Shown: positions 58,654 to 64,000 of the stretch, piece after piece
How the letters are laid out: each line of letters opens with the position of its first letter
Position numbering within the stretch: position 1 is the stretch's first letter
Origin: Candidatus Omnitrophota bacterium
GTDB taxonomy: Bacteria > Omnitrophota > Gorgyraeia > Zapsychrales > JANLHA01
Length of the DNA stretch: 64,000 nucleotides
Reading direction: 5' to 3'
Assembly (NCBI GenBank): GCA_031423615.1
Contig: JANPFV010000082.1
Coordinates: 4,208 to 68,207, forward strand
Translations under genes and position numbers: made by a program
Notes under the pieces: model-generated
The model's database searches: none
The model's input: the letters and a program-made list of their open reading frames with translations, nothing else
What the model was told of the DNA's origin: nothing

Positions 58654-58704
58654 AATAGTTTCGGACGTTACCATAAAGATGTTGTGCCGTCCTTCATACG
58701 ACGT

Positions 58705-58794
58705 CATCAACGCCACAGCCAAACGGCTGTGAGGCGTTGCGCCGTCGCAAAAACTCCGCCATCAACGCCACAGCCAAACGGCTGTGAGGCGTTG
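58705..58794. repeat. Two copies of a 35-bp near-perfect palindrome separated by 20 nt, in the divergent nifS / tRNA-Ala promoter region.
   Basis: CATCAACGCCACAGCCAAACGGCTGTGAGGCGTTG occurs at 58705-58739 and 58760-58794. The second copy's 3' end supplies the TTGACA -35 of the tRNA-Ala promoter, with TATATT -10 at 58815-58820. Confidence 0.55.
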
Positions 58795-58832: not shown

Positions 58833-58905
<73 letters not shown>

Positions 58906-59047
58906 CTTGTTTCTCTAAGTAGAGCGTCCCGCTTAACACGCGGGAAGAACACGATTTCGACTTTCGTCAGCTTTACTTGTTTCTCTAAGTAGAGCGTCCC
59001 GCTTAACACGCGGGAAGAACACGTTCTCGACTTTCGTCAGCTCCACC
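58906..59047 (+). pseudogene. Two tandem ~70-nt degenerate tRNA-3'-two-thirds-like units (D-arm 3' strand, anticodon arm, T-arm, acceptor 3' strand) directly abutting tRNA-Ala.
   Basis: The units begin CTTGTTTCTCTAA GTAGAGCG TCCCGC-UUAACAC-GCGGGA ... CGTCAGC, matching the tRNA-Ala framework (GTAGAGCG ... CGTCAGCTCCA). They have no 5' acceptor or D-stem partner. Unit 2 ends CAGCTCC-A-CCA. Confidence 0.55.
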
Positions 59048-59104
59048 AAGTTTTTTGTCGAAGACAAAATTTCTCCGAAGGGTCGCTGGTTTAGAATTTT
59101 TATT

Positions 59105-59188
59105 GCTGGAGTGGCGGAACTGGTATACGCGCTAGTCTCAAAAACTAGTCACTTCACGGTGGTGAGGGTTCGATTCCCTCCTCCAGCA
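59105..59188 (+). tRNA. tRNA-Leu (anticodon CAA), type II with a long variable arm.
   Basis: GCUGGAG acceptor, a GUGGCGGAACUGGUAUACGCGC D-arm close to E. coli tRNA-Leu, a CUCAAAA anticodon loop, a long variable arm and a GGGUUCGAUUCCC T-arm. Confidence 0.85.
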
Positions 59189-59220
59189 TTTATTTATCTG
59201 CTTTACCCGTCGGTATTTCA

Positions 59221-60306
59221 TTACTTACTTCCCTTCTCTGGCACACGTTTTGGCACAAAACCCAAGTCTATTGTTGTTACTTTCAGCCCTTGTTTGACCG
59301 CTTCCTTTGAGCTGTGGGCATAATGTTCAAGGATCGTCCGGGTGTCCTTATGGCCCGTTATAGACTTAATAACCTCCGTGTTCCCTGTCTGGTCAAGAAG
59401 GTTAGTAACAACCCGGTGGCGAAAAATATGCGGGGAGATCGGCTTCGTGATACCACATCTTTTAGCGGCCCATTTTACGCGCTCGTAAATTTTATTTCTG
59501 CCCTGCAAATTGCCTCTCCTGCTTGGAAAAACAAGACCTTTGGGATGATACAGTTTTCGTTTTCTTAACTGGTGAAAGTGTTCCGCTAAGATCATGACAT
59601 CCTGCTCTTGAAGATCGTGGGCACGTTCCACACCCGTTTTGGTTTCGCGGATATAGATTTTATTTGCCTCTAAATCGACGTCGCTGACTCGCAAATGCCT
59701 CAACTCGTCTCTGCGCCATCCCCACGTTGCCATCAAATAGACCCAAGGGAAAGTGATGATGTCGTTCTTCTGAAACCACAAAAGGATATTCTTAACCTCA
59801 ACATCTGTGGGAATCTGTACGACCTTCTTCACTTCTTTTAAATATCGTATGTTCTGGATAGGAGACTGATCAAAAATTTTGTCCTTAACAGCTTGGCAGA
59901 AAATTATCCTTAAATTACGAAGGTCACAGTTGATGCCGGCGGCGGAACGAGGCTTAGGCTTCGTCGTTTCTTGAGCATGGATATAATCACGGATCAAATT
60001 CTCGGTTATATCCTTTAAAGATATATCTCCGCAACTGGCTAGAAATCTGCTGAAACTGAGGGCTGTAAATTCACAGCGGATCTTCGTCGAAGGAGTCTTG
60101 TATCTCTTTTCAATGAACATAGCGGCAAAATCTGAAAACTTCAGGTCTTTCCGGGGCGGTTGTGTCCCCTCAACCTCACGACGTGTCGCCTCCTTGCGGG
60201 CGGCGGCTTGCGTATATTTATCAAAAGGTAATGGGTCATAATACCTAACGCCCTTAACACGCCACCAGATTTGCCAGTATCCTTTTCTTTTACGAACTCC
60301 GGCCAT
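59221..60306 (-). CDS. int: Tyrosine-type site-specific integrase; start re-assigned to MAGVRKRKGYW.
   Basis: C-terminal catalytic HIFRHRVVTNLL ... GHKDTRTILEHYAH (R, HxxR and Y); the stop lies 32 nt from tRNA-Leu. Confidence 0.85.
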   Translation of the reverse strand: MAGVRKRKGYWQIWWRVKGVRYYDPLPFDKYTQAAARKEATRREVEGTQPPRKDLKFSDFAAMFIEKRYKTPSTKIRCEFTALSFSRFLASCGDISLKDITENLIRDYIHAQETTKPKPRSAAGINCDLRNLRIIFCQAVKDKIFDQSPIQNIRYLKEVKKVVQIPTDVEVKNILLWFQKNDIITFPWVYLMATWGWRRDELRHLRVSDVDLEANKIYIRETKTGVERAHDLQEQDVMILAEHFHQLRKRKLYHPKGLVFPSRRGNLQGRNKIYERVKWAAKRCGITKPISPHIFRHRVVTNLLDQTGNTEVIKSITGHKDTRTILEHYAHSSKEAVKQGLKVTTIDLGFVPKRVPEKGSK

Positions 60307-60466
60307 CGCTCTCCTCAGAACAAGCCTTGAGGACTTGTTCAACATCAAAACGTCGGTGCTTCCCTATCCTAAGAGATTTAATTTTACCTTCCCGCACGTA
60401 TCGCATTACACTTGACGCTGGAACTTTTAGAATCTTCGCGATCCCCTCAACATCTGTGATGTGCAT
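60290..60466 (-). CDS. xis: Excisionase/AlpA-family HTH DNA-binding protein (58 aa), not in the ORF track; overlaps the int start.
   Basis: Hand-translated as MHITDVEGIAKILKVPASSVMRYVREGKIKSLRIGKHRRFDVEQVLKACSEESDGRSS; GGAGG Shine-Dalgarno 6 nt upstream. Confidence 0.6.
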   Translation of the reverse strand: MHITDVEGIAKILKVPASSVMRYVREGKIKSLRIGKHRRFDVEQVLKACSEESDGRSS

Positions 60467-60596
60467 TGGCTTCCTCCATAGTTATTTGCTTGTCTCGGCC
60501 ATTCTTTCTTGTCTAACAAGTAAGAATATATCCTAAAGCGTGGCGAATGTCAAGCAACTTTCTTGACTAGAAGGTAAGAAATGCTATGATTGGGTT

Positions 60597-60962
60597 ATGC
60601 GAAAATCGGAATATCCAAAAGAGGCCAAGACTCTCGGCCAAAGAATAAGAAAGAAGAGGATGGATTTAGGCTATACTCTGCTCGAAGTAGCAAAGGCGGC
60701 ACAAATAAGTGAAGGTTATCTTTCGCGGATCGAAGCAGACAAACAGATTCCGAACAGCCTTGTTGCTACCCGTCTTGCAAAAAAACTCGAGGACGATGTC
60801 AATTTTTATTTAATGGCGTCATTAAAAACAGACTTATCGACCGATATATTAAAGGAGATACTCAAGCGAATGGAAAAGTCCCCCTCCACGCCTGAAAGTG
60901 AAGTGCTAAAAACTATATTGGAGCAATTTCTGCCAAAGAAAACTCCCAAAAAACTTAAATAA
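60597..60962 (+). CDS. XRE-family (Cro/CI-type) HTH transcriptional regulator, likely the element repressor.
   Basis: HTH MDLGYTLLEVAKAAQISEGYLSRIEADKQIP; the promoter TTGACT-16 nt-TATGAT ends 6 nt before the ATG, so the mRNA is leaderless-like. Operator inverted repeats GTCAAG-N7-CTTGAC and CTTGT-cta-ACAAG lie upstream. Confidence 0.7.
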   Translation: MRKSEYPKEAKTLGQRIRKKRMDLGYTLLEVAKAAQISEGYLSRIEADKQIPNSLVATRLAKKLEDDVNFYLMASLKTDLSTDILKEILKRMEKSPSTPESEVLKTILEQFLPKKTPKKLK

Positions 60963-60967
60963 AACTA

Positions 60968-61345
60968 TCACCGCATAATACTTTTTTCTGCCAATTGTGC
61001 CGCAATCTTTAAACTTGCCACTTCATCAAATAAATCTTTACCGCTAATCCCTGCATGAGCTAAATTTTTGCTGGTAGGGATATGATCTACGGCTAATCCC
61101 AACTTGAGAGGTTCTTCTACAACAAGCTCAGCAATCTTAAAGATTCTTCCCGGATTATTAGGATCACGACGAGAAATTTCTAATTTGGCTCGTTCCGCCC
61201 AATCAACAGATAAATATTCCTCTTTTTTATTATCCCTAATCCGCAATAAATATGTCCCCTCTGTGCATTTCCCTGTGCGAGAGTCATAATTTACGCTAGA
61301 CACTCTCCGATGGAGATGATTATCATTCGGTATTTTCTCTACCAT
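60968..61345 (-). CDS. Cargo gene A: hypothetical protein of about 125 aa. Its start MVEKIP overlaps the stop of gene B in a TGATG arrangement.
   Basis: ORF translationally coupled to genes B and C; I recognised no domain. Confidence 0.45.
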   Translation of the reverse strand: MVEKIPNDNHLHRRVSSVNYDSRTGKCTEGTYLLRIRDNKKEEYLSVDWAERAKLEISRRDPNNPGRIFKIAELVVEEPLKLGLAVDHIPTSKNLAHAGISGKDLFDEVASLKIAAQLAEKSIMR

Positions 61346-61839
61346 CAATATCGACCCGCCCATTTCTTAAAAATGATCAATAACTCGGGCATAGAGCCAA
61401 CCTTGCTACCCTCCCTGACACCCATTACGGATTCCAAATAAATATAGTGTTCTTCTTTAGCGGTAAACCAGACAAGGAACTCGCTGTTATTCTTATACCA
61501 CTTCAAGAGAATGCCTCCATTAGGCTCAGGGGATACTGAAGGGAGCTTTAAAATTAAATTTTTATCTTCAGCTACTTTAGAAATAAAATAGTGCGCCTTG
61601 GCGATTGCATCGACGGTAATTTTTGTAGCCCCATAAGAATCCCAATCCTCACCCAAATTATTTAAATCAAGGATCTTCGATATAATTTCATGGCGAATGC
61701 GAAGATCTATCGAATTGATTTGGGCTTTAAGAATCTGAATATCTAACTCAGAAATAACTGAATGGGTTCTTCCCGTATTCGATATATCAATTTGATCATA
61801 ACGCATACTCGGGAGATCGTAGCTGATTATACTTTCCAT
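61345..61839 (-). CDS. Cargo gene B: hypothetical 164-aa protein.
   Basis: ORF separated by 1 nt from gene C; I recognised no domain. Confidence 0.45.
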   Translation of the reverse strand: MESIISYDLPSMRYDQIDISNTGRTHSVISELDIQILKAQINSIDLRIRHEIISKILDLNNLGEDWDSYGATKITVDAIAKAHYFISKVAEDKNLILKLPSVSPEPNGGILLKWYKNNSEFLVWFTAKEEHYIYLESVMGVREGSKVGSMPELLIIFKKWAGRY

Positions 61840-61840
61840 A

Positions 61841-62575
61841 CTAGTCCCACCTTGGGTTGAAATATTGATCTATAAAGTCTTTTTTAAATACCGCAAAGAA
61901 TAATTTCTTTTCAAACAAATGCGCCCCCTCGATCAAATCCATCAAACTATTATCCTGTAAATGTAAAGAGAACGCATCTATGTCGACCAAGGATCCAACA
62001 CTTACTTTTTCATTCTCAACTTTTCGGGTATTATTGGACAGCATGATTGTTGCCTGAAAATTCTGATATTCTAAATTTATTCTAAAATCGACCTTTTCTT
62101 CAACAATTGGCATTCCATCCATCGACAAAACAATATTGACTTTGTCTAAAATATTGTAGTCAAAAGTGTTCAAATAACGAATCCCCAACCTCTGATACTG
62201 ACTTACCACACCTGTGGATTTCAGCCGTTCAGCCATATCTCGGACTTTATCTTTTAACGACGCCCAGCCCATATAATTTTTCTGATTCACCAAAGAAATG
62301 ACTCGTCCACCAATCTGCAAAATTAACTGGTCATTTGTTAATTGCTTTAATGGTAAATACCGAAGTTGTGGATCTTGGTCACGAATAGCAGAAGGAAACT
62401 GTGCAAGAGGAAGGTCGTTGCTTTTGGGATAATCCTTACCAAATTCTAAAAATAGCTTATCAACAACGGCTTGATGGGACAACTCGCTTTCAAAACGAAT
62501 TTCTACTATAGCTTCCAGAATAGGAGCTGGATCGAGTTTTGTCGCCACCTTTGTTTTTTCTAAATCGAATATCAT
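61841..62575 (-). CDS. Cargo gene C: 244-aa protein, possibly TIGR04255-family (uncharacterised, sporadically distributed).
   Basis: N-terminal APILEAIVEIRFE pattern recalled as typical of TIGR04255. This is a weak assignment from memory. Confidence 0.4.
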   Translation of the reverse strand: MIFDLEKTKVATKLDPAPILEAIVEIRFESELSHQAVVDKLFLEFGKDYPKSNDLPLAQFPSAIRDQDPQLRYLPLKQLTNDQLILQIGGRVISLVNQKNYMGWASLKDKVRDMAERLKSTGVVSQYQRLGIRYLNTFDYNILDKVNIVLSMDGMPIVEEKVDFRINLEYQNFQATIMLSNNTRKVENEKVSVGSLVDIDAFSLHLQDNSLMDLIEGAHLFEKKLFFAVFKKDFIDQYFNPRWD

Positions 62576-62782
62576 AAATTTTATGTTTGAATTATACCAT
62601 TCTGCATATTGCTACACAATCATACACTAGCTTTTGTTTTTTACAAAATGAAACCCGACGCAACATTCTCTTTGAGTTGAATAAACGAACGTATTTGCAA
62701 CAGGCGGGAAAGTGCTTATTATGTGCGGAGATTTTTATACCCTTTATTCAACACGATATATTTTCATAAATGTCTTCTTAAA

Positions 62783-64000
62783 TCATCCAGCTGAACTTGC
62801 CGCTAATTCGGGCTCTCGGGCTGGCTCCTTAGGTGCTTGCCCTAAAAAAATAGGCAATGTCTGTGCGTTAACTGGCACAATATTGATGATGATGGGAAAT
62901 AGTCCTTGAATATTGATCTGCTCTAAATTCTGTTGCGGCAATGGCAACGGCACACCTTTACCATCGCGCTTGATTTGCAAATTCATATTCGTCGGGTCAA
63001 AGTCGATACCGCCGACGGCTGCAGATGAAGAAGTAGCTGCCCCACTAGCTTCTCCACTTATCGGCGCTGAGGCGGCCTTCCCATTATTGACCCCACTCGA
63101 GGCGGCGGCATTCGGAAAGAATATCCGCACAATAAGTCGCGGGTCGACCCTATATTTCGAACCAATTGCGCCGTAATCACCAAATCTGCCAATTTTCTCG
63201 GCGGTGATACCGCTAACGCTCATGAGACTACGGCCATTTTCGTCGACTAAATCACCAGAAAGATTAGTAAGCAATTTCGGATCAAATGCCGACTGATCCC
63301 GAGTACTTCTATGCGTTGTAAAAAAAAGCCCTACCCTTCCACCTAAAAAATACTCTGGGAACTTTAAAGCCAAAGCCAATTGTTGGTGGGTTAAACCGAC
63401 CGACCGCACATATTCATCGTCGGCTATCATTTGCTCTCTTTCCTCAGGGTAGACTATTTGTCCGTTTATCGACACTAACGATTCGAGTTGTCCGGGTTCC
63501 CAGACAGTCTGCGCAGGGGCAGCTTCATATAATCCTAATTCCAAACCGATTGATCCACGCAAAGGTATGTTGCCTGCACTAAAGTTTTGGTCATTAGGGA
63601 GTTCTTGCGTGTACGTTTCTTTAAAAGCCGGGTTCAAATTTAAAATATGCGGTATTCCGCCTGCCTTAGTTAATATATACATTTTTCCATTTTCGGCGCG
63701 AGGTTGACTTGTAAAAGCAATGACATCGTCCAGAAGAATATCAAAAACATTGGGTTCTTCACCATCTTTTCCAGCTTCAACATGTATTGCATTGTTTCTT
63801 ATTTCCAAGACCCTTATATCGGTCATAAAGCGGGGTAATTCTTTCAGCCGTTCTAATGTCGCTTCAGCCTGCTCAACAGTGAGCGATGGTCTTTGCATTA
63901 AAGATTCTGCTGAAACGGCAGAAACGTACTGGACAGGTCCTTTTGTATAATCGCCCTTTGGTGCCGGAGTAACCACTCCTGATACCTGAAATACCGGCGG
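62783..64000 (-). CDS. Cargo gene D: large hypothetical protein of at least 405 aa, 5'-partial (the reading frame stays open to the window edge), with a low-complexity Ala/Ser/Gly-rich C-terminal region.
   Basis: No in-frame stop between the track's GTG start at 63976 and position 64000. Separated from gene C by a 207-nt AT-rich spacer. Confidence 0.45.
   Translation of the reverse strand, partial: PPVFQVSGVVTPAPKGDYTKGPVQYVSAVSAESLMQRPSLTVEQAEATLERLKELPRFMTDIRVLEIRNNAIHVEAGKDGEEPNVFDILLDDVIAFTSQPRAENGKMYILTKAGGIPHILNLNPAFKETYTQELPNDQNFSAGNIPLRGSIGLELGLYEAAPAQTVWEPGQLESLVSINGQIVYPEEREQMIADDEYVRSVGLTHQQLALALKFPEYFLGGRVGLFFTTHRSTRDQSAFDPKLLTNLSGDLVDENGRSLMSVSGITAEKIGRFGDYGAIGSKYRVDPRLIVRIFFPNAAASSGVNNGKAASAPISGEASGAATSSSAAVGGIDFDPTNMNLQIKRDGKGVPLPLPQQNLEQINIQGLFPIIINIVPVNAQTLPIFLGQAPKEPAREPELAASSAG

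Follow-up and report, generated by a model that had tools for sequence, protein, structure and literature searches.

A recurrent three-gene cassette headed by a TIGR04255 protein on an Omnitrophota integrative element, a candidate tripartite toxin-antitoxin-like or abortive-infection module

The window analysed here is a stretch of 64,000 nucleotides from a Candidatus Omnitrophota bacterium (contig JANPFV010000082.1, positions 4,208 to 68,207 of the forward strand, in GenBank assembly GCA_031423615.1). Near its right-hand end, on an island that carries an integrase gene next to a tRNA-Leu gene, lie three small genes which we call C, B and A after an earlier, sequence-only reading of the same DNA, in the order in which they are read:

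61841..62575, minus strand: gene C, an open reading frame of 244 amino acids of the TIGR04255 family, the first gene of the cassette.
61345..61839, minus strand: gene B, an open reading frame of 164 amino acids, proposed adaptor or neutraliser.
60968..61345, minus strand: gene A, an open reading frame of 125 amino acids counted from MVEK, proposed effector or toxin; an alternative upstream ATG lies at 61363.
62619..62646, minus strand: promoter-like site for C-B-A, TTGTAA-16-TATGAT with 9 of 12 matches, a consensus match only.

The genes follow one another almost without spacing. The TAG stop codon of C is separated by a single base from the ATG of B, with a Shine-Dalgarno-like run, AAGGTGGG, lying within the 3' end of C and a GGTGGG run 8 nucleotides upstream of the B start, while the stop codon of B and the start codon of A share the sequence TGATG. 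The promoter-like site (62646..62619) ends 44 nucleotides upstream of the C ATG, inside a gap of 207 nucleotides that separates C from the neighbouring gene D. The sequence-only reading had described the three genes as tightly coupled and as borne by an int/xis/XRE island at tRNA-Leu. Both descriptions are borne out, the first by the 1-nucleotide C-B gap and the B/A overlap, the second by matches to a tRNA, an integrase, an excisionase and a repressor, which are listed further below. In being small, adjacent, co-directional and overlapping, the genes are laid out as in a type II toxin-antitoxin locus, and C-B-A is a genuine operon-like unit whose uncharacterised products are encoded on an island with an integrase.

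This unit is found elsewhere. A word-indexed search for close homologs yielded 4 for B, 8 for A and 14 for C, and every contig long enough to show it has the same C-B-A order with the same overlaps, in at least five contexts other than the window. Since order and overlaps are kept on several unrelated contigs, the trio is more than a chance assembly. A groundwater contig (L001), whose C, B and A are 63%, 54% and 54% identical to those of the window, has the trio between a type III restriction-modification pair (N6_N4_Mtase/ResIII), a serine recombinase and a Methylase_S/N6_Mtase pair. On contigs L003-L007 MNT-HEPN-MNT genes come after it, and L003 also has DUF2442 and an integrase at a greater distance; on L010 it adjoins Polbeta, HEPN and MNT genes; and on several ERZ14268xx contigs it is preceded by HTH and LemA/GIDE genes. 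Two arrangements are seen in the MNT (NTP_transf_2/Polbeta) and HEPN genes that immediately follow the trio (L003 1313-2367; L010 1906-3103). The B homolog of L010 (977-1459) is called at 107 amino acids and follows C after a gap of 158 nucleotides; it may be truncated or frameshifted. A very distant trio is present in a Peribacteria genome (L030), where the B-like gene scores 2.8e-5 and the A-like gene 4.7e-7, improving to 2.5e-27 with a broad profile, and in two further loci (L036 and L042) a B-like gene stands directly upstream of a distant A-family gene (1.2e-5; 3.4e-12 and 2.2e-10). Homologs of C, B and A, which the sequence-only reading had proposed to look for together outside this genome, thus do co-occur, on several contigs including that of the Peribacteria.

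The resemblance of C to the curated family TIGR04255, called weak in the earlier reading, is in fact strong and spans the full length of the model: 96.7 bits against a cut-off of 30 (E 1.9e-27), with residues 13-236 of C aligned to positions 1-249 of 252. C also matches PHROG 5464, a family of unknown function, at 1.5e-25, and is a full-length member of this TIGR04255/PHROG 5464 family, whose TIGR04255 definition differs from what we find in that it has neither a function in its name nor the cassette architecture. No match to C was found in Pfam or PADLOC, and a full-text literature search for TIGR04255 returned nothing. The AlphaFold2 model of C, built on a 14-sequence alignment, is confident (pLDDT 90.5, pTM 0.86), and Foldseek places TBP and AdoMetDC at the top among solved structures, at TM-scores of only 0.26-0.33, likenesses that hold at the level of the fold only. 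As modelled, C would have a two-lobed, duplicated TBP-like/AdoMetDC-like alpha/beta fold with no near relative among solved structures. In 41 homologs, which are 21-63% identical, the same polar residues are kept (E21, E25, R27, D68, Y101, W104, R129, Y134, D198, D200, H219 and K223), and because of this conservation we infer a putative ligand-binding or catalytic site. Among PDB sequences, neither A, B and C themselves nor profiles built from their relatives had a significant match.

For B, Pfam, NCBIfam, PHROG and PDB sequences hold no match, and for A neither these collections nor PADLOC do, the latter at E values up to 1. In PADLOC, B matches PDC-M32A (PDLC04575) at E 1.7e-6, with B residues 40-130 on profile positions 246-333 of 375, so that the N-terminal two thirds of PDC-M32A have no counterpart in the 164 residues of B. 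An A-family profile search of 1.84 billion proteins collected 153 cluster representatives, nearly all of them stand-alone proteins of 110-145 amino acids, with the consensus IPDxDxLYRR ... AF ... LSVDW ... VxHxPxxxNxAHxxIxG, in which S46 and H97 are invariant and R13, R14, H88, P90 and N94 are kept in 85-98% of members. These members have no meaningful Pfam match, and 36 of 99 match PDC-M32B in PADLOC (best 2.7e-10). Because B matches PDC-M32A and more than a third of these A-family members match PDC-M32B, B-A is, as far as profile comparison can tell, a distant relative of the two-gene defence candidate PDC-M32. The statement of the sequence-only reading that A, B and D belong to no nameable family therefore stands with respect to Pfam, NCBIfam and PHROG, and falls with respect to PADLOC for B and for the wider family of A. 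The broad A alignment proved too diverse for scanning loci, and a tblastn search with the A-family consensus against plasmids and phages found no match. Two assignments of A were tried and rejected: an ADP-ribosyltransferase, considered for the motifs LYRR, LSVDW and VxHxPxxxNxAH, for want of a conserved catalytic Glu, and an HNH-type protein, because its His, Asn and His stand too close together.

The PDC set consists of candidates for phage defence, as yet untested, whose genes were picked out because they are embedded in BREX, DISARM and type I restriction-modification systems (bioRxiv 10.1101/2024.01.29.577857). In the one paper found to mention PDC-M32, detections are merely listed and its function is not addressed. 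The window cassette resembles PDC-M32 in that a B-like gene directly precedes an A-like gene. It differs in having three coupled genes rather than two, a short B where the PDC-M32A profile has 375 positions, and a TIGR04255 first gene that matches no PADLOC model. Nor does the window copy lie within a BREX, DISARM or type I restriction-modification system; the L001 trio lies between N6_N4_Mtase/ResIII and Methylase_S/N6_Mtase genes. With three genes, a short B and no direct match of A, the cassette is therefore, by these sequence comparisons, best placed outside PDC-M32 as defined and related to it through B and the A family. A reading of PDC-M32A as a fusion of C and B, which the lengths would roughly allow, was discarded because C matches no PADLOC model.

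The B-A pair is one of several with which TIGR04255 proteins occur. A scan of one genome per species recovered 21 loci with distant TIGR04255 relatives (24-36% identity) from Planctomycetia, Desulfovibrio, Treponemataceae, Bryobacterales and others. When these are pooled with the other TIGR04255 loci, about 25 of 32 non-redundant ones have C at the head of a C-X-Y triad whose genes are closely packed and run in one direction, and X and Y co-vary in classes that are mostly unrelated to one another by BLAST and hhalign:

Class 1, 10 loci: X of about 104 amino acids ending in ...FWDLV; Y of about 200 amino acids with QGDG and LSNTCD motifs.
Class 2, 3 loci: Y with MSQSCDL and LPPYREHLSQSFARFF; only weakly linked to class 1 (hhalign P 2e-4).
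Class 3, L024 and L027 with a PIN-domain Y: X with a conserved ...RRRGE C-terminus; Y a PIN domain (Pfam 2.2e-10 and 2.6e-5, above cut-off).
Class 4: the B-A type of the window.
Class 5, L014 and L035: Y weakly A-like (hhalign P 3.6e-4), X weakly B-like (P 0.01).

As the remaining class pairs are unrelated by hhalign, at least three unrelated X-Y pairs appear to share a constant TIGR04255 partner. A class 3 X is accompanied by a PIN-domain Y in L024 and L027, and in L025, L029 and L034 no Y follows it. Class 3 resembles VapBC in that its third gene, in L024 and L027, encodes a PIN domain and follows a small protein with the C-terminal motif ...LLSxEEVLEEVxRRRGE; VapBC pairs, however, come without a TIGR04255 partner, and A and B of the window are unrelated to the PIN protein and its partner (hhalign P >=0.1).

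Class 1 extends to phages and plasmids. One cassette lies directly beside the portal gene of the P2-like Pseudomonas phage Dobby (L037 1090-2786), and others are found on an IMG/VR viral contig and a Phocaeicola plasmid. P2-like phages have accessory-gene hotspots that carry anti-phage systems, and the position of the Dobby TIGR04255-X-Y cassette may be of this kind, although, being of class 1, it holds another X-Y pair than the window. In the deposited annotation of Dobby, the TIGR04255 gene is shortened to its final 123 codons (1483-1854). Another triad is present in Sulfurimonas phage SNW-1, whose record itself speaks of a 'TIGR04255 family protein'; an assignment of its Y protein to HEPN was dropped, there being no Pfam match. 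PADLOC v2.0.0 has no model for C or for the proteins of classes 1 and 2, and our literature search found nothing relevant on defence in phage Dobby or on a tripartite toxin-antitoxin system with a TBP-like protein.

The genomic surroundings divide the family. The sequence-only reading had suggested that homologs of C-B-A might sit near known defence genes, and for the window-type copies this is the case, with restriction-modification, HEPN/MNT and recombinase genes close by; among 134 neighbours of 17 distant cassettes scanned with Pfam, by contrast, we find mainly Hsp70, GyrA, histidinol dehydrogenase, histidine kinases, epimerases and MFS transporters, with ResIII and DEAD only twice each among the families listed. 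Because these distant neighbours are mainly housekeeping genes, the wider family shows no visible defence-island association: a defence or mobile context belongs to the window-type class and to the phage and plasmid copies, and does not visibly hold beyond them. The distant cassettes look like small insertions scattered in chromosomes, in the manner of toxin-antitoxin loci. Their housekeeping neighbours, together with the fact that A, B and C have no domain known from toxins, nucleases or NTPases, could also speak for an ordinary accessory operon, for instance a small regulatory or metabolic complex, that hitch-hikes on mobile elements and has no part in conflict. We consider this quite improbable, as the cassette was never found within a recognisable metabolic operon, is spread patchily over distant phyla, phages and plasmids, exchanges its partner pairs, one of which includes a PIN-domain protein, and is linked to PDC-M32 through the pair in the window.

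The reading that we favour, and which we find about as easy to accept as to doubt, is that C-B-A constitutes a tripartite toxin-antitoxin-like or abortive-infection module; our confidence in the specific roles of A, B and C is less than in the module as a whole. C, B and A would be made together, from one promoter-like site and by coupled translation, both of which are seen in the sequence, and their products would form a complex. A, with its invariant Ser and His and its near-invariant Arg-Arg, His and Asn, would be the effector or toxin, and B its cognate neutraliser or adaptor, roles proposed from gene position by analogy with the cassettes that have a PIN-domain Y. C would act as a sensor or regulator that links a trigger, either phage infection or loss of the element, to the release of A. 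An extra gene that stays constant while the toxin-antitoxin-like pairs vary is also known from TAC (toxin-antitoxin-SecB-like chaperone) and from omega-epsilon-zeta, a tripartite toxin-antitoxin system with a conserved third component, which resemble C-B-A in logic only, as well as in being small coupled genes on mobile elements. C differs from these components in being the first and largest gene and in being neither SecB-like nor a small ribbon-helix-helix repressor, as no such Pfam match exists; where TAC has a SecB-like third gene, the C model is TBP/AdoMetDC-like.

Several observations weigh against this reading. A, B and C are all without a characterised homolog, and their functions are predicted throughout. 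A has no recognisable toxin domain, so that, measured against a type II toxin-antitoxin system, a recognised toxin is seen only in the PIN domain of class 3; the A of the window itself reaches no PADLOC model, and its AlphaFold2 model (8-sequence alignment) is unusable at a pLDDT of 41.7. In B, Pfam and NCBIfam detect none of the DNA-binding domains typical of antitoxins (HTH, RHH, AbrB). IMG/VR viral contigs yielded no A gene of the window type, and integrase, restriction-modification and toxin-antitoxin families are absent from the commonest 25 of 143 neighbour families of the 17 distant cassettes. Finally, there are loci with C and X and no Y (L025, L029 and L034) and loci with C alone (L028 and L031).

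The last of these are compatible with other assignments of roles, for example with C as the active component. C might then be an enzyme or toxin that works through its conserved acidic, basic and histidine residues, with X as its inhibitor or partner and Y as an optional accessory. To us this seems improbable: X and Y co-vary as pairs, which indicates that they interact with each other, Y is a PIN domain in one class, and the structural matches of C are at fold level only, with no catalytic motif that could be mapped.

A different role for the same parts would be addiction, that is, post-segregational killing, by which the cassette would stabilise the tRNA-Leu element and its other carriers instead of defending against phage. 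In favour of this, cassettes are found on an int/xis/XRE island, a plasmid and temperate phages, the distant cassettes lie singly among housekeeping genes as chromosomal toxin-antitoxin loci do, and one class has a PIN-domain Y. The window-type copies, however, adjoin restriction-modification and HEPN/MNT genes, and B-A is related to a candidate that was found by its embedding in defence systems; moreover, toxin-antitoxin and abortive-infection roles are not exclusive. On balance we regard addiction as the role of C-B-A as unlikely.

The toxin-antitoxin-like or abortive-infection module would be carried by an element whose other recognisable parts are the following:

59104..59189, plus strand: tRNA-Leu(CAA), found by ARAGORN (Rfam tRNA 60.9 bits), the presumed integration site (attL side).
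59221..60306, minus strand: tyrosine integrase of 361 amino acids (longest open reading frame to 60348); Pfam Phage_integrase 1.3e-24 and Phage_int_SAM_5, PHROG 1 integrase 5e-44.
60290..60466, minus strand: xis, an excisionase-type HTH protein of 58 amino acids; Pfam HTH_17 1.1e-8, NCBIfam TIGR01764 excisionase 9.4e-8, above cut-off.
60467..60596, unstranded: divergent promoter/operator region between xis-int and XRE, with promoter-like sites and a palindrome.
60597..60962, plus strand: XRE/cI-like HTH repressor of 121 amino acids; Pfam HTH_3 5.7e-10, PHROG transcriptional repressor.

A tyrosine integrase and an excisionase gene adjoining a tRNA gene are as in a tRNA-targeting integrative element. 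The integrase coordinates follow the 361-amino-acid gene call on the identical Logan contig L002; its stop codon lies 32 nucleotides downstream of tRNA-Leu(CAA), and xis overlaps its start. Between xis and XRE there are two promoter-like sites, at 60553..60525 on the minus strand (11 of 12 matches) and at 60563..60590 on the plus strand (10 of 12), and a palindrome, ATTCTTTCTTGT/ACAAGTAAGAAT, with arms of 12 nucleotides at 60501-60527, of which a second copy of 23 nucleotides lies at 60558-60580. This layout (60486-60596) would fit a repressor-controlled excision switch for the island. The XRE gene, convergent with A and divergent from xis-int, does not adjoin the trio at other loci and hence is no conserved partner of C-B-A. 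Over 60500-62750, a stretch that includes XRE and the trio, GC content is 0.36-0.40, lower than the 0.44-0.53 of the preceding 10 kb; read as a trace of recent acquisition, this low-GC patch would count in favour of the toxin-antitoxin-like or abortive-infection reading. No phage structural genes are present on the part of the element within the window. A second copy of the tRNA-Leu 3' end, attR, is not present within the window at up to 3 mismatches, nor did any local alignment rise above shuffled sequences, and attR may lie beyond base 64000. D would be a native gene if attR lay between C and D, a placement considered and rejected because no repeat rises above chance.

Upstream of C, on the same strand, lies the last gene of the window:

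62783..64000, minus strand: gene D, at least 405 amino acids, its 5' end outside the window and its frame open to base 64000.

The sequence-only reading had D run off the window edge, which is correct, there being no in-frame stop from 62783 up to 64000. It had also counted D as the fourth gene of a single system, and beyond its adjoining C-B-A on the same strand we see little that would speak for this. D is separated from C by the 207-nucleotide gap, which has a promoter-like site of its own, and the GC content of its 3' half, 0.48, is near background and above the 0.36-0.40 of C-B-A. No D-like gene lies beside the trio at any other trio locus. Pfam, NCBIfam, PADLOC, PHROGs, plasmids and phages hold no match to D, and the relatives that could be found share just a C-terminal domain: residues 286-399 match, at 61% identity, the C-terminal ends of two metagenome open reading frames of 972 and 1342 amino acids (L040 and L041). 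This shared region includes GGIDFDPTNMNLQIKRDGKGVPLPLPQQNLEQINIQGLFPIIINIVPV and has the motif GGIDFDPTNMNLQIKRDG.GVPLPLPQQNL.QINIQG.FP.IINI.P (window 62783-63130; the large proteins at L040 5388-8306 and L041 4281-8309). The two large reading frames, whose products are probably secreted, have in common a conserved N-terminal region and hydrophobic N-terminal segments, and their neighbours, judged by eye from translations, are yggS/proC-like and pckA-like, a housekeeping context. The C-terminal domain may serve in sorting or anchoring and be specific to the lineage, and D is probably a separate, secreted or surface protein of the host lineage. That all four genes form one system is thus extremely improbable, and neither D nor XRE, xis or int belongs to the cassette. 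What stands of the earlier proposal of an accessory or defence system is C-B-A alone, as a candidate that recurs as a unit and is akin to PDC-M32.

Further features lie on the far side of tRNA-Leu. The last 27 nucleotides of tRNA-Ala(GGC) at 58833-58906 are repeated twice more downstream with a period of 70 nucleotides (58880-59046), and the units 58880-58949 and 58950-59019 share 93% identity. The pattern resembles att-site scars, or else a tandem duplication, at what would be a second integration site in a tRNA gene. Just upstream of tRNA-Ala, at 58702-58794, two direct repeats of 38 nucleotides, 97% identical and 55 nucleotides apart, each have an internal dyad symmetry (GCCACAGCC...GGCTGTGAGGC), with an Rfam match at chance level only. 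Over the region, Rfam recognised no known RNA element besides the two tRNAs.

Taken by its genes and their recurrence, C-B-A is best described as a self-contained and probably horizontally mobile cassette of a wider family, which appears to be undescribed as such. A broader proposal, which we put forward tentatively and think rather doubtful in its full extent, is that TIGR04255 proteins mark widespread, undescribed modular tripartite systems, in which a duplicated TBP-like ligand-binding or enzymatic protein would control interchangeable toxin/neutraliser pairs (PDC-M32-like, PIN-type, SNTCD-motif and others); the systems would move among bacteria, phages and plasmids and act either in element addiction or in defence against phages, with PDC-M32 as one effector-pair branch among them. 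Irrespective of this proposal, TIGR04255, a curated family found in many phyla and so far without a function, gains a genomic grammar, consisting of a constant first gene and a swappable two-gene pair, and the pair in the window is tied to the defence candidate PDC-M32. With its 1.6 kb, the cassette is a short and easily cloned test object. Should the toxin-antitoxin or abortive-infection reading be wrong, the cassette would still be a reproducible conserved unit in want of an explanation; should it be true, TIGR04255 would represent a new conserved control component for such modules, and the A/PDC-M32B, B and SNTCD-motif families would be annotated at once, together with their partners.

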